Below are positions 10,618 through 24,286 of a stretch of DNA of 28,401 nucleotides, one piece after another (the stretch's first letter is position 1; every line of letters begins with the position of its first letter). Under the pieces are notes generated by a model that was given only the letters and a program-made list of their open reading frames with translations, was not told where the DNA came from and made no database searches. The stretch lies in the IMG/VR virus record IMGVR_UViG_3300021437_000070, positions 1-28,401 of that record; one strand, written 5' to 3'. Origin of the DNA: a virus. Lineage: Duplodnaviria; Caudoviricetes. The position numbers were made by a program, and so were the translations under genes.

Positions 10618-12377
10618 TGGCCCGCGTTCCACTGATGGTGGTGCCCCAGGCCGAGCAGTCACAACTGCCCGGCCCTATGGCGGACGACCGCGCGCCGCTG
10701 CGGCGCATGGACGGTGGCGGTCAAGAGGTGCAGCAGCTCGGGCAGAGCCTGATGCGTGCCGGCACGGACTACGACCGCCTCGCCGCGCAGCAGCAGGCGC
10801 TGACCAACGAATCCACGGTCAAGGACAGCACCGCGCAGCTGCACGACATGGTGTCGAAGCTCATGTACGACCCCGAGACGGGGTACATGAACGCCAAGGG
10901 CAAGAACGCTCTCGGGGCTGCCGAGGGTGGCCGGTTCGACGACGTGCACGACGCCCTGCAGAACGCAGTCCGGGATCTCGGCGGCAAGCTGACGAACCCC
11001 GAGCAGCAACGTATGTTCGGCCAGGTTGCCCAGCAGGTCACCGGCGCGGCGGTCAACGCCATGCGCCAGCACGCCTCACAGCAGAACACGGTCTACGCAA
11101 TGGACTCGTCGCGGGCGCGAGGCGACGCCGCCGGCGAATCCGCAGTGCTCGCTTTCAACCCGATGCCCGGGGCCGACAACAGCCTCTACCAGCAGGGCGT
11201 TGCGGTGCGCACCGCCGAGCTGCGCGACCAAGCGCGCCTGGCCGGGCTCGACGCCGACAGCGCGGCCGGCTTTGTCAAGGCAGGCTTGGCGAAGACCTAC
11301 ACCTCGGTCCTCGACCACCTGCTGGCCAACGGCCAGACGAAGGCCGCCAACGACTACTTCGGCAGCGTGCGCGACCAGCTGCCCTCGCAGGTGGCCGACA
11401 AGATCACCGCTGCGCTGACCGCGGGCCGGGCCAAGGACGACGGCATCAACTTGGCGCTGACCCTGGGGCAGAAGTTCGGCACGCTCGCACAGCAGGAAGC
11501 CGAGCTGAACAAGCGCAAACTGGCGGGCGATGTCGACGCCGACACCTACACCGTCGCGCAAGCCCAGCTGCGCGCCGGCGACGCCATGCGCAAGAGCGCA
11601 CAGGCCGACGCCGAAAAGCAGTTCCTTGGGTCGATCTGGGACGCGCACCGGCAGAACCCCGCGATGACGGTTGCAAACCTGACCCCGCAGCAGTTGGCGT
11701 TCGTGAAGGCCAGCAACCTGGGGCCCCACGTCGACAACATCCTGCGGCCGGACACCGCCCCGAAGATCGACGACATCGAGACCGTCGTGCAGCTGCGTCA
11801 CATGGCGGCTGACGACCCGGTTGGCTTCGTCCACTTGGACTTGCACAAGTTCGGGCTGAACCCGTCCAGCCTTTTGGACTTGTCGGCAAAGCAGGACGGC
11901 ATCACCAAGAAGGGCGCCATTCAGCTGTCCGTCGACAAGCTGATGAGCGGCGCGGTGCGCACCGCGGTCGGTGAGCTGAAAGTTGCCGGCGTCGACCCCG
12001 GCGCGAAGCCTGGAACCGACGCTGCGCAGAACTACGCCGACTTCCAGAACGCCGCGTTCAACGCCCTGGAGGATGAGGTGAAGGCGCGCCAGGCCTCGAA
12101 GCTCAAGCCGATGACCGACGCCGACGCGCGGGCGGTGGTGCTCGGCGTGGTGAAGAAAACCACGCTGGCCGGCACCGGCGTGCTCGGCTTCTTCCAGGAC
12201 GACGGCCCGGCCTACCAGGTGGTCAGCAAGATCCCCGCGGCCGACCGTGAGCAGATCACGCAAGCGCTGCGCGCCAAGGGCCGCGCGGTCACGCCGGCGG
12301 CGATCGTCGACCTTTACAACGCTGTGCGCGCGAAGCCGGCGGTCAAGCCTGCGACCGGCGCGCAAGGAAGTTGGTGA
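10617..12377 (+). CDS. Internal virion / ejection protein (gp15-like position)
   Basis: TGATG coupling, MARVP start, helical 586 aa, LMYDPETGY...KGKNA motif, position in the operon. Confidence 0.75.
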   Translation: MARVPLMVVPQAEQSQLPGPMADDRAPLRRMDGGGQEVQQLGQSLMRAGTDYDRLAAQQQALTNESTVKDSTAQLHDMVSKLMYDPETGYMNAKGKNALGAAEGGRFDDVHDALQNAVRDLGGKLTNPEQQRMFGQVAQQVTGAAVNAMRQHASQQNTVYAMDSSRARGDAAGESAVLAFNPMPGADNSLYQQGVAVRTAELRDQARLAGLDADSAAGFVKAGLAKTYTSVLDHLLANGQTKAANDYFGSVRDQLPSQVADKITAALTAGRAKDDGINLALTLGQKFGTLAQQEAELNKRKLAGDVDADTYTVAQAQLRAGDAMRKSAQADAEKQFLGSIWDAHRQNPAMTVANLTPQQLAFVKASNLGPHVDNILRPDTAPKIDDIETVVQLRHMAADDPVGFVHLDLHKFGLNPSSLLDLSAKQDGITKKGAIQLSVDKLMSGAVRTAVGELKVAGVDPGAKPGTDAAQNYADFQNAAFNALEDEVKARQASKLKPMTDADARAVVLGVVKKTTLAGTGVLGFFQDDGPAYQVVSKIPAADREQITQALRAKGRAVTPAAIVDLYNAVRAKPAVKPATGAQGSW

Positions 12378-15300
12378 TGAGCGGCAACCCGTATCTCGAC
12401 ACCCTGGAAGCGCAAGAGGAAGACGGCACAACGCCGGTTCCGCGCGCCGCGGGCAACCCCTACCTGGCCACGCTCAACCAACAGAGCCAGAACACCCGCG
12501 CGCAGGCCGCGCTGGCGATCAGCACGCAGCTCGACCAGAACCCCGACAAGGCCTCGCAGAACACGCAGCTGGCCCGGCGGTTCAAGGTGCCGCCGGCGGT
12601 GGTCGACCAGTGGCCGGAAGAGTTCCGCACACGCGCTGTCACCGACGCCGCGCGCGAAGCGCTGGGCGACGCGCCCACGCTGTCGCGCACGCTGGCGGCG
12701 GACCCGCGCGCTGCGGCGAACATCCACGACGACGTGCCGATGACCGTCGCCACCGAGAAGACCGCCCGCAGCCTGCCGCAACGTGCGCTGGACTACGTCT
12801 TCAGCACGCACGGCATCACCGACGACGCGTCGGAGAATCTGGCGTCATTCGCTGCGTCGGTGGTGCGTTCGGCTGCCGCTACGGTCGAGCCCGTCGCTGT
12901 CCACTACCCGGCGCTCGCCGCCGGCGCGCTGACGCTGCCGGTCGACTGGATGCTGGGCACAGACCTTGCTTCGTACCCGTTCACCCTGGCCTACCGTCAG
13001 GGCCTGCTGGCCGATCAGGAGAAGGCGCGCGCTGCGGCCGACAAGACTTTCAGCGGCAAGCTGGCCAGCGCCACCGGCGGCACGCTGGGCGTGCTCGGCG
13101 AAGCCATGGCGACCGGGGGCGAGGCCACCGCGGCGCGCCTCGGCGCCGGCACCTGGGAAGCGCTGTGGCCCGCCATTCAGCACGGCATCCGCTCGATGCT
13201 GGTGCCGTCGGCTGCAGCCAGTGCCGAGACCGCACAGCAGGTGCGGGACGCCGGCGGCACGCCGGGGCAAGCTGTCGGCGCTGGCTTGGCGTCCTACGCC
13301 TCGAACACCCTGGGCGGCATCGTGCCCTTCGCCAAGGCCGGCGCGCCGCTGCTCAGCCGGATCGCGTCAGGCGCAGCGATGGGCCCGATCACCGGCGAGG
13401 TGTCGCGCCAGCTGATGAACGCGACGTTGCCCGAGAGCATGCAGACGGCGCGCCCCGGCGCTGACGACCTGGCGATTCAGGCCATCACGGGCGGCGTGTT
13501 CGGCGGCCTGGTTGGTGGCCACGACGAGGCGACGCAAAGCCGCGTCATGCGCGAGTACGTGCGAAGCACCTACGACGCGGCGAACGCCCACGACGCTCTG
13601 CAGGCCGAGGCCACGCTGCGCTCGCTGAGCGCGATCGTTCAGGAAGGCAAGCTGCGCAGCCGCGACATGGACAGCTTCAAGCAGCTGCTGACCGATGTCG
13701 GCGACGACGCGAACATCGACGGGGTCTGGATAGACGCGCGCAAGCTCACCGAAGTGCTCGACGCGGCCGGCCTGGAGGGCGAGCACCTGCGCGAGGTGCT
13801 GCCGAAGGTGGCCAGCCAGATGCGTGAGGCGCTGCAGACCGAAGGCCAGGTGCGCATCGGCCTTGACGACTACGGCACGCACATCATGGGCAGCACCGTC
13901 GAAGATGCGCTGATCCCGCACCTGCGCGTCAAGGAAGACGGGCCGACGATCGGCGAGGCGCAGAAGTACGCCGGCGGTCAGCGCGAGCGCATGGCCGGCG
14001 AGGCGGCGCGCATCCTGGCCGAGAAAGCGGCCGACGAGGACTTCGCGGCCTCGCGCCAGAAGGTGCTCGACGACACCCAGGCGCAGCTGGCCGCGACCGG
14101 GCGCTTTCCGCCCGACGTCGCCAAGCTGTACGCGAACCTGCACGCCGACTGGTTCACCGTGTTGGGCGCCGAGCTGGGGCTGAAGCCCCACGAGGCGCGC
14201 GAGCGCTACGCAGTCAACGTGGCGGGCGAACGAGGCACCGGCGCCTCGGTCATGGACCAGCCCGGCGCGGTGAGCGTCGAGGGCTACCACTTCAGCCATG
14301 AGGACCGGCCAACGCTGTCGACCGCGGCCTACGGCACGGGGCTGCGCGGCAGCGCGCGCGACGAGATCCTGAACCACCCCGATCAGCGGTTGAGGCAGCG
14401 CCTGTCGTTCTACTTCGACAAGGGCACCGGTGTGAGGCCCGAGGATGGTGTTGGTGGCCGGGCGCACCGCGTCCAGCTGGACAACATCTACGACGCCGAC
14501 GCCGACCCGCTGAAGCTGCGCAGCGGCGACGCGCGGGCGTTCGAATCCAAGCTGCTGGATCTCGGGTACAAGGGCTACCTCAACCGCATGGAGGGCACGC
14601 AGCCCGGCCAGGTGATTGCCCTCGGGCCCCAGACCTTCCGCCCCGAGCTGCTGGGCGCGCAGTCCAAGATCGAGGGCGGTCAGCGCGTGCCGGCGCTGCC
14701 GGCCGAAGCACCCACCTGGCGCACCGAGGCCAGCGGTTCGCCCGAGGCGATGCAGGCCAGGCTGGAGCGCATGAAGGCGAACCCGGCCTGGGCCGGCTAT
14801 GACCTGCGCGTCGAGGGCCGCGAGCTGCAATCGCTGAAGCGCGGGCCGGTCGACGAGGACCGCAACGCCCCGCCGCCCGCGGTGTTCCAGCAACATGCCG
14901 ACCAGAAAGGACTGACAGATGGACCTGCCGCCGCCCCCGGAGCTGAAGGACTTCCCAGATCAGGAGAGCTTCCAGGAGGCGCGGGGGTTCTGGCAGGCGA
15001 GGGTCGGCCGGATCAAGGGGCTGGCCGCGAGCCCGACGGCAGTCTCCGCGGCCTCCCCCGTGACGTCGGCGGCTACCGTGCGAGCGCCTTCCCGGAAGCC
15101 CAGCGCGTAGCGCGCGACTACATGGCGAAGGCCGGGCTCCCCTACGAGCCGCCGGCCACCTACGCCAAGGTCGACGTGCCGCGCGCGAAGCGCATCGCGC
15201 AGGCCTTCGAGGCGATGAAGCATGACCCGGAGAACCCCGAGGTCAAGGCGGCCTACGCCAAGATGGTCGAAGAGGTAACCGCGCAGTACCAGGCGGCGTT

Positions 15301-18300
15301 GGACGCCGGCCTCAAAGTCGAGTTCGTCACTGGCGACGACCCCTACAAGGGCAACCCCCGGGCGATGACCGAGGACGTGCGGCAGAACAACCATATGTGG
15401 GTGTTCAGCACGCGCGACGGGTTTGGCACCGACGCCACCTTCGACCCCGCCGGGAACCCCCTGTTGGCAGAGACCGCGCACGAGATCAGCGGCCAGAAGG
15501 CCCTGGCCAACGATCTGTTCCGCGTCGTGCACGACTACTTCGGCCACGTCAAGGAAGGTGTCGGGTTCCGTGCCGCTGGGGAGGAAAACGCCTGGCGGGC
15601 CCACATGGCGATGTTCTCGCCCCTGGCGCGCAAGGCCGCTACCACCGAGACCCGCGGCCAGAACTCGTGGCTGAACTACGGCCCCCACGGCGAAACGAAC
15701 CGAACAGCCAAGGTCGAGGACACGCACTTCGCCGACCAGAAGATCGGCTTGCTGCCGGACTGGGTGGTCAACGAGGGGCGCACAGACGCGCCGCAAGACG
15801 CCCACATCAATGTCGGCATGGACGTGCGGCCGGACTTGCGAGACCAGCCGCTGAAGGTCGACGAGATCACCGACGCGCTGCGCGCCGCCGGCGTGCACGT
15901 GCTTGACTCGGCCGTCCACCAGTCCGATACCGAGAAAACCTTCGTCGGCCACCTGGACCGGCCGCTCACGCCAGAAGAGGGCCACGCCCTGAGCGTGGCG
16001 CTGAAGCAGGAAGCCATCGCCCAGAAGACCGGCGACACCGGCGCGTTGTACGGGCCCGAGGCCTCGAAGTGGGGTGGCTACAACCCGGACTACTTCCTGA
16101 TGCCGGACGGGCGGCGTGCCAGCGACACCACGTTTGCGCAGGCCGATCTGTTCCCGGAAGATCTTGCTGACAAGAACACGACCGTTGAGACTTCGCGCGT
16201 CGTTTCGTCAAAGGGTGCGACAGAACGCGGCACCAACACCAACAGTGCCGGGCAGCGCATAGCGTCGACCGTTCAGGGACTGCGCAACTTCTGGCGTTGG
16301 TTCGGCAACAGCGATGCTGTTGACGCTGACGGCGCCCCCCTGGTCCTGTACCACTCGACGAACGCGGACACCGCCACGTTGGAAGCGAACCGCAAGACCA
16401 CCAACAATTACGGCATTCTGGGTGACGTCGATGTCTCGCGTGCGGCGGTCTTCCTGACGCCTGACCGCGCCTTCTCGCAGGAGTACCTGCGCAGCGGCGA
16501 AGGCCAGAACGTAATGCCCGTGTACGCGCGCATGGAGTATCCGTTCGATCTTCGCAAGGGGCTTAGCGAAACCCAAGAGCAGGAGCTTGAAGCGGCCGGC
16601 GTCAATACCCGTTACATACACAACATCGGGCATCATTGGGAGCTGTTCGACAACGCGGACGACGGCACGAACCTCTTCGTGGACACGTTAAAGCGCCTCG
16701 GTTACGACGGCGCGCTCTTCAGAGAAGCCGATCAGGCCGGCGCGGTGCACGACACCTATGCGGTGTTCAGTGGCGAACAGGTCAAGAGCGCTACAGGCAA
16801 CCGAGGCACCTTTGACGCCAGCGCCGCTGTCCACAACCAAGACACCCCTGGCGGGGGCTCCGTCGGCACTTCGCCGCCCGGCAGCCCCGACCCTCTGAAG
16901 CCCGGCGCCGGCGCCCGCGGCCAGATCAGCTTCGCCGACGACATCACCTCGGCGCCGAGCACCATCAGCTTGCTGAAGAACGCCGACCTGTCGACGTTCC
17001 TGCACGAGACCGGTCACTTCTTCCTTCAGGTCTACGCCGACGTGGCCGGCCGGCCCGACGCGCCGGCGAAGATCGCCGCCGACATGCAGCACCTGCTGGA
17101 CTGGTTCGGTGTCAAGGACGTCGCCACTTGGCAGGCAATGACCGCCGACCAGCAGCGCGAGTTCCACGAGCGCTTCGCCCGCGGCTTCGAGGCCTACCTG
17201 ATGGGCGGCGAAGCACCGAGCCTGGCCCAGCAGTCGATGTTCCAGCGGTTCGCCTCCTGGCTGACGCAGGTCTACCGCTCGCTGGCCGGGCTCAACGTCC
17301 AGCTGACGCCCGAGGTGCGCGGCGTCATGGACCGCATGTTGGCGTCCGAGAATGCCATCAAGGAGGCCGAGGCCGCGCGCGGCCTGCGCTCGCTCTTCGA
17401 GACCCGGCCCGAAGGCATGACCGACGACGCCTGGGCGAAGTACCAGACGGACGCGCTGGCGGCCACCGGCGCGGCCGTGAGCGACTTGCAGCGTCGGTCG
17501 ATCAAGGATATGCAGTGGCTGGCCAACGCAAAGGCCGGCGCGATGTCCGTGCTGCAGCGCGAGGCGCGCGAGAAGCGCAAGGCCATCACCGCCGAGGTGA
17601 CCGCCGAAGTCGACGCGCTGCCGGCCTTCGCCGCCAAGGCCTACCTTGACCGCGCCACCGATCCGTTGGGCGACTACAAGGCGGCGATGGCCGCCTGGCG
17701 CGAGCAGCGCAACGCCGTCGCCAAGGACGAGCGGCCGGCGTGGCTGGCCGCGCACCCCGAGCCGGAGAAGCCGGCATCCGATGTTCCGGCGTGGGAGGCC
17801 CGCCGCGAGGCGGAGCAGGCCCGTGCGCGCGACGAAGAGAAGGCCCGGGTAGGTGAGGGGCTGACCGGGATTGCGAAGGGCCAGGCGCTGGCCAAAGCTG
17901 CGCGCGAGATCGACAACAACGTCGAACGCACGATGATCGCCTGGGACCGCGCGAACCCGCGCCCGACGGTCGAGCGCCCGAAGGTTGACCTGGAGGTGAC
18001 CGCCGACCGCTTCGGGTTCAACTCGGCCGACGAAATGCTGCAGGCTATCAAGGACGCCGGCAGCCGCAAGGACGTCATCGAAGCCATGACCGACCAGCGC
18101 ATGCTGGAGCGGCATGGCGAGCTGGTCGACCCCGTCAGCATCGAGCGTGCGGCCGAGGCCGCCATCCACAACGACGTCCGCGCCCGCGTCCTGGCGCGCG
18201 AGCTGAACGCGCTGGCCAAAGCCACCGGCAGCCCGCGCTTGCTTGCCAAGGCTGCCGAAGAGGCCGCGCAGGCAGCGATCGGCGCCAAGGTCATCAAGGA

Positions 18301-20971
18301 CTTGCGCGCCAAGCAGTACGGCGTGGCCGAAGGCAAAGCCGGCCGCCTGGCCATGGAGGCCTTCAAGAAAGGCGACACCGAGACCGCCGCAATCCAGAAG
18401 CGCGCCCAGCTGCTGAACAACGCCCTGATGAAGGAAGCCTTGGCCGCCGCCGACGCGGTGCGTAAGGGTCTTACCTACCAGGGCAAGTTCGACCGCGCCA
18501 GCGTGCGCGAGAACCTGGACGGCGAGTTCCTGGAGCAGATCGACCGCCTGCGCTCACTCGTCGACTTCCGGCGCAACGCGCCGGCGCAGGACCGGCAGCT
18601 GCGGTCGCTGCTGGAGTTCGGTCAGGCGCTGCGGGCGCAGGGCTACGAGCCCCAGGTGCCGGACTGGCTGGCTGGGCTGACGCAGCGTACACGCTACGAC
18701 GCGCTGACCGTCGACCAGTTCCGTGGCGTCATCGACGCCATGCGGTCGCTGGAGCACATCGCCCGCGACCGCCAGCGGGTGCGCCTGGGCGCCGAGCGTG
18801 CGACGGTGCGCGATGTGGTCGACAACCAGTTGCTGCCGCGCCTGGAGCAGCGCGGCGAGGCCTTCAGCAAGGTCGACCTGCTCGATACCCCGCAGGCCAA
18901 GGTCGACGGCTTCTGGAAGGCCTTCACCCACTGGATGGGCGTCAAGGCGCGGCTGATCCACTCGGACCTGCTGGGCGCCGACTACCGCTTCAACAAGTAC
19001 GACCTGCACGACCTGCAAGGCCCGTTCCGCCAGCTGATCCTCGACCGCTTCCTGGAGGCGAACTACCGCAAGGTGGACCTGACGAAAGCGGTCAGCGACC
19101 GGGCCGGCGCCGTCGGCGACGCCCTCGGCAAGGACTGGCAGCGCAGCCTCTACGATGTGCTGCCGAACCGCACGCTGATGGACCCGGACCTGACCGTCGA
19201 AGGCAAGCCGCCGGTGCCGCTGAAGATGACCCGCGGCAAGCTGCTGGCCATCGCCAGGCACGTCGGCAACGAGAGCAACTTCGACAAGCTGGTCAAGGGC
19301 TGGGGCTGGCAGCCGGACACGGTGGTGGCCTATTTGAAGGAACACATGCGTGCCGCCGACTGGCAGGCCACACAGGCGCATTGGGACAGCTTCGACCCGC
19401 TGTGGAAAGAGACCGAAGCCATGGTGCGCCGCGTCGGCGGCGTGCCCCCGCCGAAGGTGCCGGCGCGTGAGTTCTCGGTGACCACCAAGGACGGCCAGAC
19501 GATCAACATGCGCGGCGGCTATTCGCCGATCGACTATGACCCGGTGCGCTCGAAGCTGAGCGTGCGCAAGGGGGAGTTCAGCCTCGACCCCAGCGACAAG
19601 GTGGAGAACATGCCGCGGTACACCGCGACGACCACCAGCAACGGCTCGTTGAACGCCCGCGCGCAGGGCTACACCGACCGGGTGTCGCTGGACTTCCATG
19701 GGGCCGACGCGCGCATCCGCGACACGATCCACGACCTGGCCTACCGCGAGGCGCTGATCGACGCCACGAAGATCATCAACGACAAGGCCTTCCGCGAGAA
19801 GTTCATGTCGGTCTACGGCCGCGAGGAATACCAGGCGCTGGTCGACTGGATGCGCAGCATCCGCGACACCAACGTCCAAGACCCGCGCACGCGCAACTTC
19901 GACAAGGCCATGCAGTACACCCGCCAGGGCGTGGTGCTGACGGGCATCGGCTACCGCGTCAGCACGGTCCTGAAGCACGGCGGCGCGGCCGCGCTGAAGA
20001 GCCTGGGCTACCTCGGCAACGCCGACGGCGCCGCGTTCTTCGCCGCGCGCCTGGGGCGGATGGGCTCGGGCCACGCCGGCGAAGACATCGCGGCAGCCAA
20101 AGAGAAGTTCGACGAGATCCGCGCGCGGGCGCTCCAGATGGACCGCGACTACAAGGAAGGCTCGCGCTCGATGTACGAGGCCGAGGGCCTGCTGCAGAAG
20201 AACGACCGTTTCGGCCACGCCATGGTGGCCTGGTCGGATCTGCTGTCGGCCGTGCCGACAGCCTGGGCCGCCTACGACCTGGCCACAACGAAGGGCATCC
20301 CCAAGAGCATGGGCGGCACTGGCGTGCCGATGGGCGAAGCCGAGGCGGTGCGCTACGCCAACAGCATCGTGCGCCAGGCCCACGGCAGCGCGCTGGAGGT
20401 GTCGCGCTCGAACTTTCTGCAGTCGCGCGGCGCCAAGGGGTTCTTCGGTGCGCTGTACGGGTTCATGAACAACACCTACGGCCAGATGGCCGATCTGCTG
20501 GACAAGAGCACCAGCAACGGTTTTTTCAGGAACAACCCCGCGGTAGCGGCCCGCCTCCTGGCCACGTTCCTGATCCCTGCGGTGTGGACCGAATGGCTCA
20601 AGGAGCAAGGGCCGGAAGACGGTCACACCTGGCTGGGCTGGCTCGGCAAGGCGCTAGTCGCCGAAGGCTCGGCCATGGTGCCGTTTGTGCGCGACGCCGT
20701 CAGCATCCTGGAGTACGGGCGCAACCCCAGCGTGGCGCCGGCGCAAGCCTTCAGCGACGTGCTGAATGCCGGCAAGGATCTGTGGAAGGAAGCCCACGGT
20801 GAGAGCACGCGGCTGATCCAGGATCTGTCGAACGCCATCGGTGAATGGGCCCACATCGCCGGCCTGGGCCAGCTCGGCCACATTCTGCAGCACATGCGCG
20901 ACGTCGCCAACGGCAAGAAAGAGCCGAGCGCCTGGCACGCTGTCGTCGGCGGCAAGGAAGAGCACAAGTAG
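12377..20971 (+). CDS. Giant ejection protein (Bbp10 / epsilon15 gp17-like scaffold) with inserted polyvalent enzyme modules
   Basis: About 2864 aa from ATG 12377 (TGATG overlap, AAGGAAG RBS). Hydrophobic N-terminal segments, ADLSTFLHETGHFF zincin motif, ART-PolyVal-like module, and GGY.PI.YD in the C-terminal half. Confidence 0.88.
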   Translation: MSGNPYLDTLEAQEEDGTTPVPRAAGNPYLATLNQQSQNTRAQAALAISTQLDQNPDKASQNTQLARRFKVPPAVVDQWPEEFRTRAVTDAAREALGDAPTLSRTLAADPRAAANIHDDVPMTVATEKTARSLPQRALDYVFSTHGITDDASENLASFAASVVRSAAATVEPVAVHYPALAAGALTLPVDWMLGTDLASYPFTLAYRQGLLADQEKARAAADKTFSGKLASATGGTLGVLGEAMATGGEATAARLGAGTWEALWPAIQHGIRSMLVPSAAASAETAQQVRDAGGTPGQAVGAGLASYASNTLGGIVPFAKAGAPLLSRIASGAAMGPITGEVSRQLMNATLPESMQTARPGADDLAIQAITGGVFGGLVGGHDEATQSRVMREYVRSTYDAANAHDALQAEATLRSLSAIVQEGKLRSRDMDSFKQLLTDVGDDANIDGVWIDARKLTEVLDAAGLEGEHLREVLPKVASQMREALQTEGQVRIGLDDYGTHIMGSTVEDALIPHLRVKEDGPTIGEAQKYAGGQRERMAGEAARILAEKAADEDFAASRQKVLDDTQAQLAATGRFPPDVAKLYANLHADWFTVLGAELGLKPHEARERYAVNVAGERGTGASVMDQPGAVSVEGYHFSHEDRPTLSTAAYGTGLRGSARDEILNHPDQRLRQRLSFYFDKGTGVRPEDGVGGRAHRVQLDNIYDADADPLKLRSGDARAFESKLLDLGYKGYLNRMEGTQPGQVIALGPQTFRPELLGAQSKIEGGQRVPALPAEAPTWRTEASGSPEAMQARLERMKANPAWAGYDLRVEGRELQSLKRGPVDEDRNAPPPAVFQQHADQKGLTDGPAAAPGAEGLPRSGELPGGAGVLAGEGRPDQGAGREPDGSLRGLPRDVGGYRASAFPEAQRVARDYMAKAGLPYEPPATYAKVDVPRAKRIAQAFEAMKHDPENPEVKAAYAKMVEEVTAQYQAALDAGLKVEFVTGDDPYKGNPRAMTEDVRQNNHMWVFSTRDGFGTDATFDPAGNPLLAETAHEISGQKALANDLFRVVHDYFGHVKEGVGFRAAGEENAWRAHMAMFSPLARKAATTETRGQNSWLNYGPHGETNRTAKVEDTHFADQKIGLLPDWVVNEGRTDAPQDAHINVGMDVRPDLRDQPLKVDEITDALRAAGVHVLDSAVHQSDTEKTFVGHLDRPLTPEEGHALSVALKQEAIAQKTGDTGALYGPEASKWGGYNPDYFLMPDGRRASDTTFAQADLFPEDLADKNTTVETSRVVSSKGATERGTNTNSAGQRIASTVQGLRNFWRWFGNSDAVDADGAPLVLYHSTNADTATLEANRKTTNNYGILGDVDVSRAAVFLTPDRAFSQEYLRSGEGQNVMPVYARMEYPFDLRKGLSETQEQELEAAGVNTRYIHNIGHHWELFDNADDGTNLFVDTLKRLGYDGALFREADQAGAVHDTYAVFSGEQVKSATGNRGTFDASAAVHNQDTPGGGSVGTSPPGSPDPLKPGAGARGQISFADDITSAPSTISLLKNADLSTFLHETGHFFLQVYADVAGRPDAPAKIAADMQHLLDWFGVKDVATWQAMTADQQREFHERFARGFEAYLMGGEAPSLAQQSMFQRFASWLTQVYRSLAGLNVQLTPEVRGVMDRMLASENAIKEAEAARGLRSLFETRPEGMTDDAWAKYQTDALAATGAAVSDLQRRSIKDMQWLANAKAGAMSVLQREAREKRKAITAEVTAEVDALPAFAAKAYLDRATDPLGDYKAAMAAWREQRNAVAKDERPAWLAAHPEPEKPASDVPAWEARREAEQARARDEEKARVGEGLTGIAKGQALAKAAREIDNNVERTMIAWDRANPRPTVERPKVDLEVTADRFGFNSADEMLQAIKDAGSRKDVIEAMTDQRMLERHGELVDPVSIERAAEAAIHNDVRARVLARELNALAKATGSPRLLAKAAEEAAQAAIGAKVIKDLRAKQYGVAEGKAGRLAMEAFKKGDTETAAIQKRAQLLNNALMKEALAAADAVRKGLTYQGKFDRASVRENLDGEFLEQIDRLRSLVDFRRNAPAQDRQLRSLLEFGQALRAQGYEPQVPDWLAGLTQRTRYDALTVDQFRGVIDAMRSLEHIARDRQRVRLGAERATVRDVVDNQLLPRLEQRGEAFSKVDLLDTPQAKVDGFWKAFTHWMGVKARLIHSDLLGADYRFNKYDLHDLQGPFRQLILDRFLEANYRKVDLTKAVSDRAGAVGDALGKDWQRSLYDVLPNRTLMDPDLTVEGKPPVPLKMTRGKLLAIARHVGNESNFDKLVKGWGWQPDTVVAYLKEHMRAADWQATQAHWDSFDPLWKETEAMVRRVGGVPPPKVPAREFSVTTKDGQTINMRGGYSPIDYDPVRSKLSVRKGEFSLDPSDKVENMPRYTATTTSNGSLNARAQGYTDRVSLDFHGADARIRDTIHDLAYREALIDATKIINDKAFREKFMSVYGREEYQALVDWMRSIRDTNVQDPRTRNFDKAMQYTRQGVVLTGIGYRVSTVLKHGGAAALKSLGYLGNADGAAFFAARLGRMGSGHAGEDIAAAKEKFDEIRARALQMDRDYKEGSRSMYEAEGLLQKNDRFGHAMVAWSDLLSAVPTAWAAYDLATTKGIPKSMGGTGVPMGEAEAVRYANSIVRQAHGSALEVSRSNFLQSRGAKGFFGALYGFMNNTYGQMADLLDKSTSNGFFRNNPAVAARLLATFLIPAVWTEWLKEQGPEDGHTWLGWLGKALVAEGSAMVPFVRDAVSILEYGRNPSVAPAQAFSDVLNAGKDLWKEAHGESTRLIQDLSNAIGEWAHIAGLGQLGHILQHMRDVANGKKEPSAWHAVVGGKEEHK
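14919..15110 (+). CDS. Nested overprinted 63-aa ORF inside the giant gene
   Basis: AAAGGA RBS 7 nt before the ATG. The host frame here is a low-complexity G/P/A linker. Confidence 0.6.
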   Translation: MDLPPPPELKDFPDQESFQEARGFWQARVGRIKGLAASPTAVSAASPVTSAATVRAPSRKPSA

Positions 20972-21029: not shown

Positions 21030-23285
21030 ATGACCATATCCAGCACCACGCGCACCGCGGGGCCCTACGCAGGCACAGGCCTGGTGACCACCTACCCGTT
21101 CGCCTTCAAGGTGTTCGCCACTTCCGACGTCTTCGTCGTGCGCACCGTGTCGGGCGTGGACACCACGTTGACGCTGGGCTCGGACTACACCGTCACACTC
21201 AACGCGAACCAGGACTCCAGCCCCGGCGGCAACGTGGTGCTGTTCTCGGTGCTCGCCGTGGGCGCGACGCTCAACATCCGGTCCAGCGTGCTGGCGCTGC
21301 AGTTGACCGACATCACCAACGCTGGCGGCTTCTACCCCCAGGTCATCGAAGACGCCCTGGACAAGCTGACGATCTTGTTGCAGCAGCTGGGGGTGGTCGG
21401 TCTGCTGCAGTATTTGCGGGTGCCCGAGGTGGCCGGCGTGCCCGCGCTTCCGGTTGCCGCCGTCCGGGCCAACACGGTGCAGGCCTACGACAGCAGCGGC
21501 AATCCGACGGTCCTGGTGCCCGCGAGCGGCAGCGCGGCCGACGTCCTGATCCAGCTCGCCGACATCACCAGCGCGGCGAAGAATGCGGCGCTGATGCTGT
21601 ACTCGGCCTCGCTGACCTACGCCGACGGCACATCCGGCGCGCACATGGCGATGGTGCGCAGCGCCAAGGACTACCCGTACCTGGCGCCGACAAACGGCAG
21701 CTCGGCCAACGCGGCCTTGACGGCGTTCTTCACTGCGGCCTCGAACGGCGTGAACTTCCTGCCGGCGGGCACCTACACCTTGACGTCGCTGCTGGACCTG
21801 TCGGCCGTGCCGCTGTCCAACTGCGTCATCAAGGGTGTGCCGGGGTTGACGAAGATCACCGGCAACTTCGACTTCCGGACCATTCTGCTGGGTGCGCTCA
21901 ATCATGTTGTCTTCGAGGACATCATCTTCGAGAACACCTACACCAGCGCGGCGGTCAACAACACTTACGCAGCGGTCTACACGGTCAACAACGACATAAA
22001 GGAGGTCAGCTTCCGCCGCTGCAAGTTCACCTCGCCGAACTGTGACGGGAATGGGCTTTACCACTATTCGAGAACAAACCCCGCCGGCTCCGAGACCTGC
22101 GTCATTGACGGGTTGTGGGTGACGGACTGCGAGTTCACCAGCCTGGGGCAAGTCGGGTTCGGCATCAACAACAACCAGGTAAGCGCCGACAAGTACACCG
22201 CTGTTCGCCGAGTTCACATCCGACGCAACAAGTTCGACGTAATGGGGATCAAGCTGCGTTACGGCATGGCCGTAACGCTCAACGGCTTTCTCTCGGCTTT
22301 CTCGGTCGACGACAATTACGTCAATTCGCCTTACGGTGTTGGCATCGAGAACACGTTCGGCATTGACGGCTCGATGAAGGACAACCGGTTCCTGTTCGAC
22401 CCGGCGAAGAAATCGCGGGCGATGTCGGTGGCCGACGCCAGCGCGACTTACCCTTCGCGCGGAATGACGATCAGCGGGAACAAGTGCCTCAACGATGCGA
22501 GCTATCACAGCTACGCCAGCTTCTGCAACGACTCCACACTCTCGGGGAACACCTGGCGCTTCACCGGCGCGGTGACCGGCGAAGAGGATGCGTTCTGGGT
22601 TCTCGACTCGAACCGCATCAAGATCACCGGCGACTTCTTCATCAGCGACAAGAAGTACGCGATGCGTTTCGTCTCGACAACCGGGACGTGTTCCGGGAAC
22701 CGGCTGCGTAATTGCACATTCGACACGAGCGCGTCGGCGGCGGTAACTGCGACCGTCAACTTCGACGGTGCGAGCACGACCGACAATTACGCCGAAGGGA
22801 AGATGACCAAGGGTACGGGTGGCTCAGCCTGGACCCAGACCAACAGCGCTGCGAACAACGCCTACGGCTATGACCAGTCGGGCGCCTGGACGCCGGACAT
22901 CACCTTCGCAACGCCGGGTGACCTGGCAAAGACGCTGACGGTCACTGGCAACTACAACCGGGTCGGCAGGGTCTGCACCCTCACGTTCCAGATTGACTCC
23001 ACAGCGTTCACCTGGACGACAGCGGCGAGCTTCCTGCGCATCACCGGCATGCCCTTCGCGGCGGCGAATATCGGCCAACTGGACTACGCTGCGCTCGGCA
23101 CGTTCCGAGGGATCACAAAGGCCGGTTTCAGCCAGTTCGCCCTGCGCACTGTCCAGAATCAGACCTACATGCAGGTGACCGCCAGCAACAGCGCGGCGGT
23201 GCCGTCCGGGGTTGTCGCCGCCGACATGCCCAGCGGCGGCACCCTCGCGCTGTACGGGACGATCTCTTACCAGGTGCAGGACTGA
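21030..23285 (+). CDS. Tailspike / tail fibre with probable right-handed beta-helix
   Basis: GAGGA RBS then ATG 21030. MTISSTTR.AGP..G.G....PF.FKVF...GGFYP.VIEDALDKLT anchor domain, FLPAGTY, Asn/Gly-rich repeats, and a C-terminal G.WTP...G.Y.RVG...I.G.PF domain. Confidence 0.88.
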   Translation: MTISSTTRTAGPYAGTGLVTTYPFAFKVFATSDVFVVRTVSGVDTTLTLGSDYTVTLNANQDSSPGGNVVLFSVLAVGATLNIRSSVLALQLTDITNAGGFYPQVIEDALDKLTILLQQLGVVGLLQYLRVPEVAGVPALPVAAVRANTVQAYDSSGNPTVLVPASGSAADVLIQLADITSAAKNAALMLYSASLTYADGTSGAHMAMVRSAKDYPYLAPTNGSSANAALTAFFTAASNGVNFLPAGTYTLTSLLDLSAVPLSNCVIKGVPGLTKITGNFDFRTILLGALNHVVFEDIIFENTYTSAAVNNTYAAVYTVNNDIKEVSFRRCKFTSPNCDGNGLYHYSRTNPAGSETCVIDGLWVTDCEFTSLGQVGFGINNNQVSADKYTAVRRVHIRRNKFDVMGIKLRYGMAVTLNGFLSAFSVDDNYVNSPYGVGIENTFGIDGSMKDNRFLFDPAKKSRAMSVADASATYPSRGMTISGNKCLNDASYHSYASFCNDSTLSGNTWRFTGAVTGEEDAFWVLDSNRIKITGDFFISDKKYAMRFVSTTGTCSGNRLRNCTFDTSASAAVTATVNFDGASTTDNYAEGKMTKGTGGSAWTQTNSAANNAYGYDQSGAWTPDITFATPGDLAKTLTVTGNYNRVGRVCTLTFQIDSTAFTWTTAASFLRITGMPFAAANIGQLDYAALGTFRGITKAGFSQFALRTVQNQTYMQVTASNSAAVPSGVVAADMPSGGTLALYGTISYQVQD

Positions 23286-23289
23286 CGCC

Positions 23290-23541
23290 ATGCCGAACTA
23301 CACGCAAGACGCCCCTCAACACCCCGCGCTGATCGACGCCAAGGTGGACATCGCGGTCCTGCAGAGCCAGTACAAGCTGCTGCAGGAAGAGATCGCAAGC
23401 ATGCGTGTCACCCTCGGGGAGGTGAAGGAACTGCTGTCGGAAGCGAAGGGCGGCTGGCGCACCGCCATGCTGATAGGCGGCGCCGGCGCCACCTTCGCCA
23501 CGATCGCATCATGGCTGGTGGCGCACGTCACGTTCAGGTAA
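23290..23541 (+). CDS. Coiled-coil plus single transmembrane protein, putative holin-like lysis protein
   Basis: AGGA RBS, heptad N-terminus, KGGW followed by a hydrophobic C-terminal helix. Position after the tailspike. Confidence 0.55.
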   Translation: MPNYTQDAPQHPALIDAKVDIAVLQSQYKLLQEEIASMRVTLGEVKELLSEAKGGWRTAMLIGGAGATFATIASWLVAHVTFR

Positions 23542-24286
23542 CCTCTTCGGCCCTCATGTCGACCCAGCGCTGAAGGCTGGCCATGGCCTCGCGCACATCG
23601 CGCGCGGCGTCTTTGCCCCCACGAGAGCCCGGCACCAACAGCTTTTTGATGGCGTGCTGCAAGCACGGGTCGGCCACCTCGAACATCAGCAGCACCCGGT
23701 AGACGTCGACCTCGGTGAAGGGGCAGGGCTTGAAGTAGTGGCTGAACGGCCGGGCCTTCTGTTCAGCTTGAACGCCGGCCGAAGCCGCCGCACCTTGCCG
23801 CGCAAACCCGCCGTCCGCGACCACCTGCACATCCGCACCTTCGAGCGGGTCAGGCGCCGGCCGCCGGTAGGCACCGAGCAGGCGTTCGCCTTGGGGGTCG
23901 GCCGCAATGTGGTTGTCCAGGCGCTTGGCGCCCGTCCACGGGTTGTACTTCCACACGGCATCAGGCCACCGGTAGAGGGCCGCGCGCCGGAGTTCACCGC
24001 CCACCAGTTCACGCCCATTCAAGGGGCTGTAGGTCAGCAGCGGCAGTTGCCCTGGGATGTCTTCAGGTTCTGCCGCCCGCATCGGCCCCCAGGCGTCGGA
24101 CCAGATCAGCAACCCATGGGGGTCGCTGCCGATGTCTTCCTGGTGTCGAGGCAAGCCCGTCCACGGGTTGTACTTCCACACGGCGTCGGGCCACCTGTAC
24201 CGGGCCGCGTCACAGCACCCGGTCAACAGCCTGTGTCCGTCCAGGGGGCCGTAGACCAGTGGCGGCTGCCCGTTGTTCTCGCTCAT
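23534..24286 (-). CDS. Hypothetical protein: two YNPWTG repeats plus a DUF3310-like C-terminal domain
   Basis: RWPDAVWKYNPWTG occurs twice. C-terminal HY...VDVYRVL..F.V.DPC.QHAIKKLL..G.RG.K...D..EA...L.R. ATGA coupling to the helicase. Confidence 0.7.
   Translation of the reverse strand: MSENNGQPPLVYGPLDGHRLLTGCCDAARYRWPDAVWKYNPWTGLPRHQEDIGSDPHGLLIWSDAWGPMRAAEPEDIPGQLPLLTYSPLNGRELVGGELRRAALYRWPDAVWKYNPWTGAKRLDNHIAADPQGERLLGAYRRPAPDPLEGADVQVVADGGFARQGAAASAGVQAEQKARPFSHYFKPCPFTEVDVYRVLLMFEVADPCLQHAIKKLLVPGSRGGKDAARDVREAMASLQRWVDMRAEEVT

Follow-up and report, generated by a model that had tools for sequence, protein, structure and literature searches.

A conserved +1-frame gene nested in the polyvalent protein gene of a podophage, and the predicted binding of its product to the adjacent HDYFGH module

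The giant gene and the reading frame nested in it

The window, i.e. the whole stretch of DNA analysed here, is a virus record of 28,401 bases which carries the structural genes of a BPP-1-like podophage (portal, GP7-family capsid, Bbp16 and tail tubular proteins). A gene of the T7_gp14 family and a gene with an endolysin domain precede a giant open reading frame (ORF) at 12371-20971, which from this gene order probably takes the position of the large ejection protein. The giant protein contains LPD22 at residues 45-136 (E 1.5e-8), ART-PolyVal at residues 1318-1481 (E 1.8e-19) and also phrog_11722 and a HETGH motif at residue 1545; several polyvalent-type domains are hereby united in one large phage protein. 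Because of LPD22, ART-PolyVal, the peptidase motif and the virion-gene context, we regard it as a polyvalent protein in the sense of the passages covered of Iyer et al. 2017 (PMC5512222). These passages deal with the polyvalent proteins of phages, mention MPTases with a HEXXXH motif and liken the domain cassettes to polymorphic toxin systems.

A sequence-only reading had claimed that the giant gene hides an overprinted +1-frame ORF, whose product, a cognate inhibitor or chaperone, would protect the producing cell and travel with the HDYFGH module encoded just behind it. The features concerned are the following.

12371-20971, plus strand: gene of the giant polyvalent protein (2866 aa), at the probable place of the ejection protein in a BPP-1-like podophage
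14908-14915, plus strand: ribosome-binding site (RBS) AGGACTGA, 11 nt before the ATG at 14919
14919-15110, plus strand: nested +1-frame gene (P0001), 63 aa, predicted cognate binder or inhibitor of the HDYFGH module
14925-15026, plus strand: conserved core of the nested gene, "motif A", residues ~3-36, LPxxPxRxxFxxxEEFEEAxxxWxxRVGRI
15095-15790, plus strand: HDYFGH module, host residues ~909-1140, likely a metal-binding enzyme domain
5077 (ATG), 7057 (GTG) and 14919 (ATG), plus strand: starts behind AGGACTGA of capsid, tail tubular A and nested ORF
23290 (ATG), plus strand: start behind AGGACTGA inside the ORF 23212-23541
27108 (GTG), minus strand: start behind AGGACTGA

The nested ORF, located and described correctly in that reading, begins with ATG at host residue ~850, ends with TAG and is offset by +1 against the giant ORF. 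Its RBS had been said to be common to the capsid, the tail A, the 23278 and the minus-strand 27108 genes, and AGGACTGA indeed lies 11-12 nt before all those starts. The window holds six copies (plus strand 2888, 5066, 7046, 14908 and 23278; minus strand 27119), compared with a chance expectation from base composition of ~0.3 copies per strand. Five of the six are placed 11-12 nt ahead of a start; the copy at 2888 has no start after it. The host frame had been described as turning into a linker here, and glycine, arginine, alanine and serine account for 404 of 810 residues over the ORF across 27 homologous loci. The ORF also directly precedes the phrog_3170 match of the module (host residues 912-1122), which agrees with its proposed site just before HDYFGH.

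The Shine-Dalgarno sequence (SD) together with an ATG or GTG start is kept in 25 of 29 non-redundant family loci, and the family is always in +1. In alignment A1 of the small protein P7 and E20 are invariant and 24 of 26 rows have A21; towards the C-terminus the sequence varies. A helical protein is suggested by how the conserved F18, A21, W25, R28/V29 and I32 are spaced. The 63-aa product gave no Pfam or PHROG match and no usable Atlas feature match, which has no bearing on novelty or absence. The giant gene of the window contains five other SD-bearing +1 or +2 ORFs, none of which belongs to any conserved cluster. No internal sigma-70 promoter was found within 14000-15300.

Directly upstream of the nested gene, a domain at 14264-14650 (plus strand, giant residues ~632-760) is shared by 35 of the 123 representative loci. 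Pfam gave no match for it, and profile comparison gave a weak resemblance to ART-PolyVal (probability 15%). Elsewhere in the window, the small gene at 23290-23541 (plus strand), called holin-like in the sequence-only reading, follows the AGGACTGA copy at 23278 and encodes a hydrophobic C-terminal segment. The minus-strand gene at 23534-24286 encodes a 249-aa protein whose N-terminal half contains an aromatic-rich stretch twice and which ends in a phrog_2452 domain.

Linkage to the module and selection in the +1 frame

For an analysis of linkage, the module alone was used as bait and 80 viral loci and 63 genome loci were fetched. A hidden Markov model (HMM) of the small protein, grown iteratively on the viral loci with a threshold of E<1e-3, matches 31 of 81 loci (the 80 viral loci and the window, near-duplicates included), in all cases in +1; 30 of the matches lie 143-191 nt before the module and one lies at 587 nt. 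Among 12,948 peptides no HMM match was found outside the +1 frame. This count is circular, since the rows were picked by a +1 profile that favours this frame, and the profile was therefore applied unchanged to the 63 held-out genome loci. Five of them match, all in +1 and at -161 to -182. DNA patterns blind to the module recovered 11 viral loci, five of them on contigs not fetched earlier, and all 11 carry the module 164-191 nt downstream. The co-occurrence of small gene and HDYFGH module expected from the sequence-only reading is thereby found by profile and by pattern. A tight linkage of one small gene to one domain across varied contexts is also a feature of effector-immunity systems.

A chance ORF, or the shadow of conservation in the giant frame, could look similar at a single locus, as high-GC DNA is rich in long off-frame ORFs and the window alone has 140 of at least 60 aa. 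A test free of any profile was made on 144 module loci, reduced to 123 non-redundant ones, of which 95 could be used, their host frame being open far enough upstream. In +1, 49 of these 95 loci have an ORF with SD and ATG, 35 aa or longer, that ends near the module start, as against one of 95 in +2. At 13 control anchors the same ORF test gave +1 rates between 1/77 and 11/95. The arrangement at the module start exceeds chance. The remaining 46 of the 95 usable loci are without an SD+ATG nested ORF at the module start, although partners elsewhere are possible. Together with the wobble pattern described below, the held-out matches and the copies that survive a closed host frame, the excess of +1 over +2 makes a chance ORF or conservation shadow barely conceivable.

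The domain upstream of the nested gene in the window is present in just three of the 29 family loci, and a linkage of the nested gene to this domain instead of the module was rejected. The loci compared show that, as far as gene order tells, the place of the nested gene is fixed to the module whatever domain stands upstream.

The two frames differ in what they conserve. Over the 30-codon core of 27 non-redundant ungapped rows, the +1 frame reaches an amino-acid identity of 38.5%, the host frame 24.5% and +2 24.0%; the rows were chosen by the +1 profile, which favours +1. Nucleotide identity over the nested core is 0.565/0.552/0.403 by +1 codon position, compared with 0.794/0.849/0.390 for the host codon positions of the module. 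Variation hence peaks at the +1 third position in the nested gene and at the host third position inside the module. Reduced synonymous variability had been proposed as a check, and wobble variation follows the +1 codons. In 29 loci the host frame has no stop across the nested gene, where synonymous recoding would lead one to expect 50.4. Between 14927 and 15002 a strain variant in run X2 (one contig) differs by six changes; four replace an amino acid in the giant protein and leave the small one as it is, and two do the opposite. By these substitution patterns, the comparison shows the small gene to be under protein-level selection in +1, with the giant frame held open across it. Two features of overlapping genes are present, namely a conserved start and RBS of its own and +1 selection with the host frame open. 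We are practically certain that the nested ORF is a real gene. The idea of an overprinted gene holds in so far as a nested gene exists; its direction appears to be turned round, since the small frame is constrained and the giant frame tolerated, so that it is the linker which seems to have been printed over the small gene.

The ORF might also act as a translational device, either a frameshift leader or a re-initiation coupling which yields a shorter module-bearing product. The strong RBS lies just ahead of a domain boundary, and the window has an ATG in the host frame, 14 nt downstream from the first base of the stop codon. However, a slippery heptamer and a host-frame start near the stop are each found in one of 29 family loci, so that neither frameshift nor re-initiation is supported, and the stop positions are spread from -479 to +16. 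Amino-acid conservation and the free-standing copies described below favour a function of the protein, and we judge a translational device to be very improbable.

The module also occurs in cultured phages. BD1, Mel-JY33 and gp102 of mycobacteriophage Rizal showed no nested ORF before the module, which can thus occur with no such partner close by. In Rizal (L185:2752-4053, NC_011272.1 gp102) it forms part of a separate 433-aa gene with no nested partner seen. A distant form of the module is found in 199 mycobacteriophage records, with ~32% identity among the matches listed.

The HDYFGH module and the predicted complex

The module matches phrog_3170 (E 6.9e-14), and its AlphaFold2 model has a pLDDT of 95.5. 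In 68 module sequences H146, D147, H151, E163, H170, E185 and Q189 are invariant. The motif is thus an invariant H-D-x-x-G-H, with Asp at the position of the catalytic Glu of zincins, and not the HEXXH or HEXXXH with catalytic Glu of zincin-like MPTases. Another zincin feature, a conserved Glu in the following helix, is present, as E163 is invariant and located inside the predicted helix 160-171; E163 may be a metal ligand. Compared with the HEXXXH MPTases in the passages covered of PMC5512222, the HDxxxH module is not assignable to MPTase. Profile comparison of the module with the HETGH peptidase domain of the same giant protein gave a probability of 2%. The iron motif of aromatic amino acid hydroxylases in the Biopterin_H fold is H-[DE]-x-x-G-H. 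Against 28 bacterial PF00351 (Biopterin_H) sequences, hhalign aligned only 10 columns with a probability of 25-30% (shuffled maximum 0.9%), and in Foldseek an aromatic amino acid hydroxylase reading reached E >= 0.19. Weaker structural matches in BFVD (rows 22-32) are to uncharacterised proteins of ~150-200 aa from Pseudomonas phages LKA1, shl2 and phiGM22-3 and Caulobacter phage Percy; by the structural models, these are possibly stand-alone forms of the module core.

Co-folding, a check named in the sequence-only reading, was run for module and peptide. The complex prediction scored 0.86 (runs 0.86, 0.82 and 0.86), and the best of three controls scored 0.00. The score mark is reached by 116 of 157 solved and two of 215 mismatched pairs, a calibration which is rough here, own alignments having been used. 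Contacts agree to at least 82%, and the pLDDT of the partner is at least 74. A sequence search for solved relatives of the module came up empty (best E 0.2), which makes it less likely that the score reflects a memorised structure. Peptide residues 1-9 and 15-38 belong to the predicted interface. Of the 25 invariant residues of the module, 10 are among the 37 interface residues (Y84, T106, N139, R143, H146, D147, F158, E163, Q189 and A213; hypergeometric p=0.002). The prediction supports docking of the peptide on the conserved His-Asp face of the module, which is likely the active site. We consider it probable, on these models, that the small protein binds the module. The claim of a cognate partner travelling with the module therefore stands on its linkage side (31/81 and 5/63 loci), and on its partner side it has gained a likely binder by controlled prediction.

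Binding leaves several roles for the peptide. The modelled site and the linkage point, with somewhat better than even confidence, to a cognate inhibitor that travels with its domain. Giant protein and small protein would be made from the same late mRNA, and the short helical product is predicted to cover the likely active-site face of the HDYFGH domain. The enzyme domain would hereby be held off during synthesis and packaging of the giant protein. Ejection proteins pass the tail partly unfolded. On ejection of the giant protein the peptide may be removed or stay behind, and on this proposal the domain would be active solely in the newly infected cell. Nesting in the flanking linker would allow domain and antidote to be shuffled between polyvalent genes as one in-frame cassette.

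Instead of inhibiting the module, the bound peptide may help it to fold, aid its packaging, activate it or be co-ejected as a subunit. Linkage and predicted complex would look alike for any obligate partner, the activity of the module is putative, and docking on a conserved face also suits a substrate, an activator or a chaperone. Against this, the predicted contacts centre on invariant putative catalytic residues (10/25), an obligate subunit would be expected with every module, yet 46 of 95 loci have no nested ORF, and free-standing copies without the module would be hard to explain for a chaperone. We give this group of roles a minor share of the probability.

Further +1 motifs, free-standing copies and known systems

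Motif A is not the only conserved stretch in the +1 frame. In a survey of 157 loci, with seeds picked by eye, small numbers and near-duplicates included, six other +1 motifs (B, C, D, E, H and I) each trail one particular upstream host domain. Pairs with similar upstream sequence were 19/21 for B, 3/3 for C, 9/10 for D, 3/3 for E, 3/3 for H and 1/1 for I, with a background of 86/3486 for all module loci. The domains ahead of motifs C, E and I match DUF7178. Motifs F (2/36 such pairs) and G (1/6) instead sit before the module, as motif A does. In a quick tree of 110 modules with motif labels assigned by regular expression, motif F is limited to one module clade without motif A (10 of 13 rows, SH-aLRT 100). 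Motifs of neighbouring domains may share one ORF, namely B+A (L004, L005, L024), H+A (L051, L054, L085), B+F (L103, L109) and D+F (L091). Since motifs D and E occur more than 1 kb away from the HDYFGH module, the nested layer is not limited to it; they were seen behind their own host domains at L021:1768, L036:1687 and L101:4579. None of the sought motifs is present in 76 of 123 representative loci.

Outside polyvalent genes, the small gene is found on its own. Among 27 metagenome pattern hits two are non-members, five are nested before the module, one is nested with the contig ending and 19 are free-standing. In these 19 copies (~12 distinct by eye) the giant frame is closed and no module lies downstream. 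The small gene thus persists alone with the giant frame closed, so its product would be useful as a separate protein; this shows that the small gene outlives its host frame. Neighbours were inspected for 15 of the 19 and include HsdM (L158), ParE (L164), HNH (L166), HipA (L173), RelE with an HTH partner (L176), IS integrase (L157, L161), ADP-ribosylglycohydrolase (L171) and an outer-membrane barrel (L169, L178). Fragments of polyvalent domains are still present in L158, L167 and L173. At L158:572-2132 a broken polyvalent remnant, made up of a C-terminal piece of the module, motif C and an intact motif A gene, lies directly before hsdM. At L169:1961-2260 and L178:585-899 (both minus strand) a free-standing B+A fusion of ~100 aa follows a gene for an outer-membrane beta-barrel; the giant frame is closed there as well. 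By analogy to toxin systems, the free-standing copies are possibly captured orphan immunity genes; remnants of decaying prophages, or a target of their own, would explain them as well. A search for orphan copies in 400 scored genomes of one class gave a sole match (G001), which is a nested copy. Among 1.84 billion proteins, 370 clusters at 50% identity match A1 with E<=1e-3. Two of the matched proteins, P0004 and P0005, have three matched motif A stretches each, and several others have two.

These copies bear on a further alternative, that the small protein has a host or competitor target of its own and hitch-hikes in polyvalent genes since linkers tolerate a second frame. The 19 of 27 metagenome hits that are free-standing or fused to unrelated proteins, near HsdM, ParE, RelE, HipA, HNH or IS genes, would agree with it, as would the tandem motif repeats and the mostly missing module within ~2 kb of the free-standing copies. 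On the other hand, the gene keeps its position relative to the module whichever unrelated domain lies upstream (that of the window in 3/29), the 11 viral loci found blind to the module all carry it, and the controlled complex prediction was passed. To our mind an own target is improbable, and a cognate inhibitor is still the reading we prefer.

A wider proposal would join these observations. Polyvalent virion proteins may carry a systematic second coding layer with one antidote per enzyme cassette, placed in +1 in the linker beside it; adjacent antidotes would fuse into "polyvalent antitoxins" during domain shuffling, and bacteria would capture copies as orphan immunity to effectors that phages inject. 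We put this forward tentatively and would not expect it to hold in full.

Polymorphic toxins typically have their immunity protein encoded by a separate gene that follows immediately downstream. As in effector-immunity pairs, a small cognate gene is tied here to a likely enzyme cassette, the partners depend on the clade, and free-standing copies exist. Unlike in such pairs, the gene lies out of frame inside the ORF of the effector itself and upstream of the domain, delivery is by a phage virion, and motifs of neighbouring domains fuse in one small protein. Since neither a separate downstream gene nor a partner for every effector copy is found (46/95 loci are without one), the nested gene is not classed as an effector-immunity pair, even though it is likened to one in its presumed function. 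In polymorphic toxin and T6SS systems, the free-standing copies have a parallel in orphan immunity genes (PMC12247911, PMC10470768) and the linked arrangement has one in effector-immunity pairs (PMC3482391), as far as the passages covered describe them.

Out-of-frame genes inside phage genes are already known, e.g. ShiLan, which the passages covered of PMC11855218 describe as a selfish homing nuclease encoded by an out-of-frame ORF inside a phage gene with no detectable RBS. As with ShiLan in that description, a functional ORF in another frame lies in a phage gene whose own frame reads through as a tolerated loop. In contrast to it, the nested gene has a strong RBS and no nuclease domain, and its product is a predicted binder of the host protein. 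A hidden HNH element of this type was considered and rejected, as the 63-aa product is without an HNH motif and without a Pfam or PHROG match.

Rz1 in lambda Rz is a +1 nested gene with its own start, and its product interacts with the product of the hosting gene. The present gene is likewise nested in +1 with its own start, and the hosting gene's product is the predicted partner. Rz and Rz1 differ in that spanins are membrane lysis proteins forming one machine, whereas here a soluble peptide is predicted to lie over an enzyme site in a shuffled cassette.

A literature search, with most subscription journals outside its scope, returned no paper on domain-paired nested inhibitors in polyvalent proteins. 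The main text of PMC5512222 has no occurrence of "overlap", "linker", "frameshift" or "small protein", and its passages covered mention no cognate inhibitors. The present analysis adds the predicted active-site docking, the pairing of one motif per domain with fusions, and the free-standing copies.

Enzyme domains that look aggressive are numerous in polyvalent virion proteins, and how phage and producing cell withstand them during assembly is not addressed in the passages covered of PMC5512222. A domain-specific nested inhibitor, if true, would explain this tolerance, and the proposal is testable with a 230-aa domain and a 40-aa peptide. Nested partners would then also provide a handle for cloning and assigning uncharacterised polyvalent domains. 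If free-standing copies protect bacteria, they would represent a new kind of anti-phage defence against injected effectors.

The findings indicate a class of genes that annotation has missed in the records checked (MinM2, MW202675). In the cultured Synechococcus phage MinM2 an unannotated +1 ORF of 69 codons precedes the module, and its motif resembles motif A by eye. A nested ORF is also carried, at about 18098-18307, by the cultured phage of record OQ594354.1. This phage record and two others (OL906435.1 and PP438419.1) are each 65,014 bp long, have an identical match score and were deposited under three different cyanobacterial hosts.
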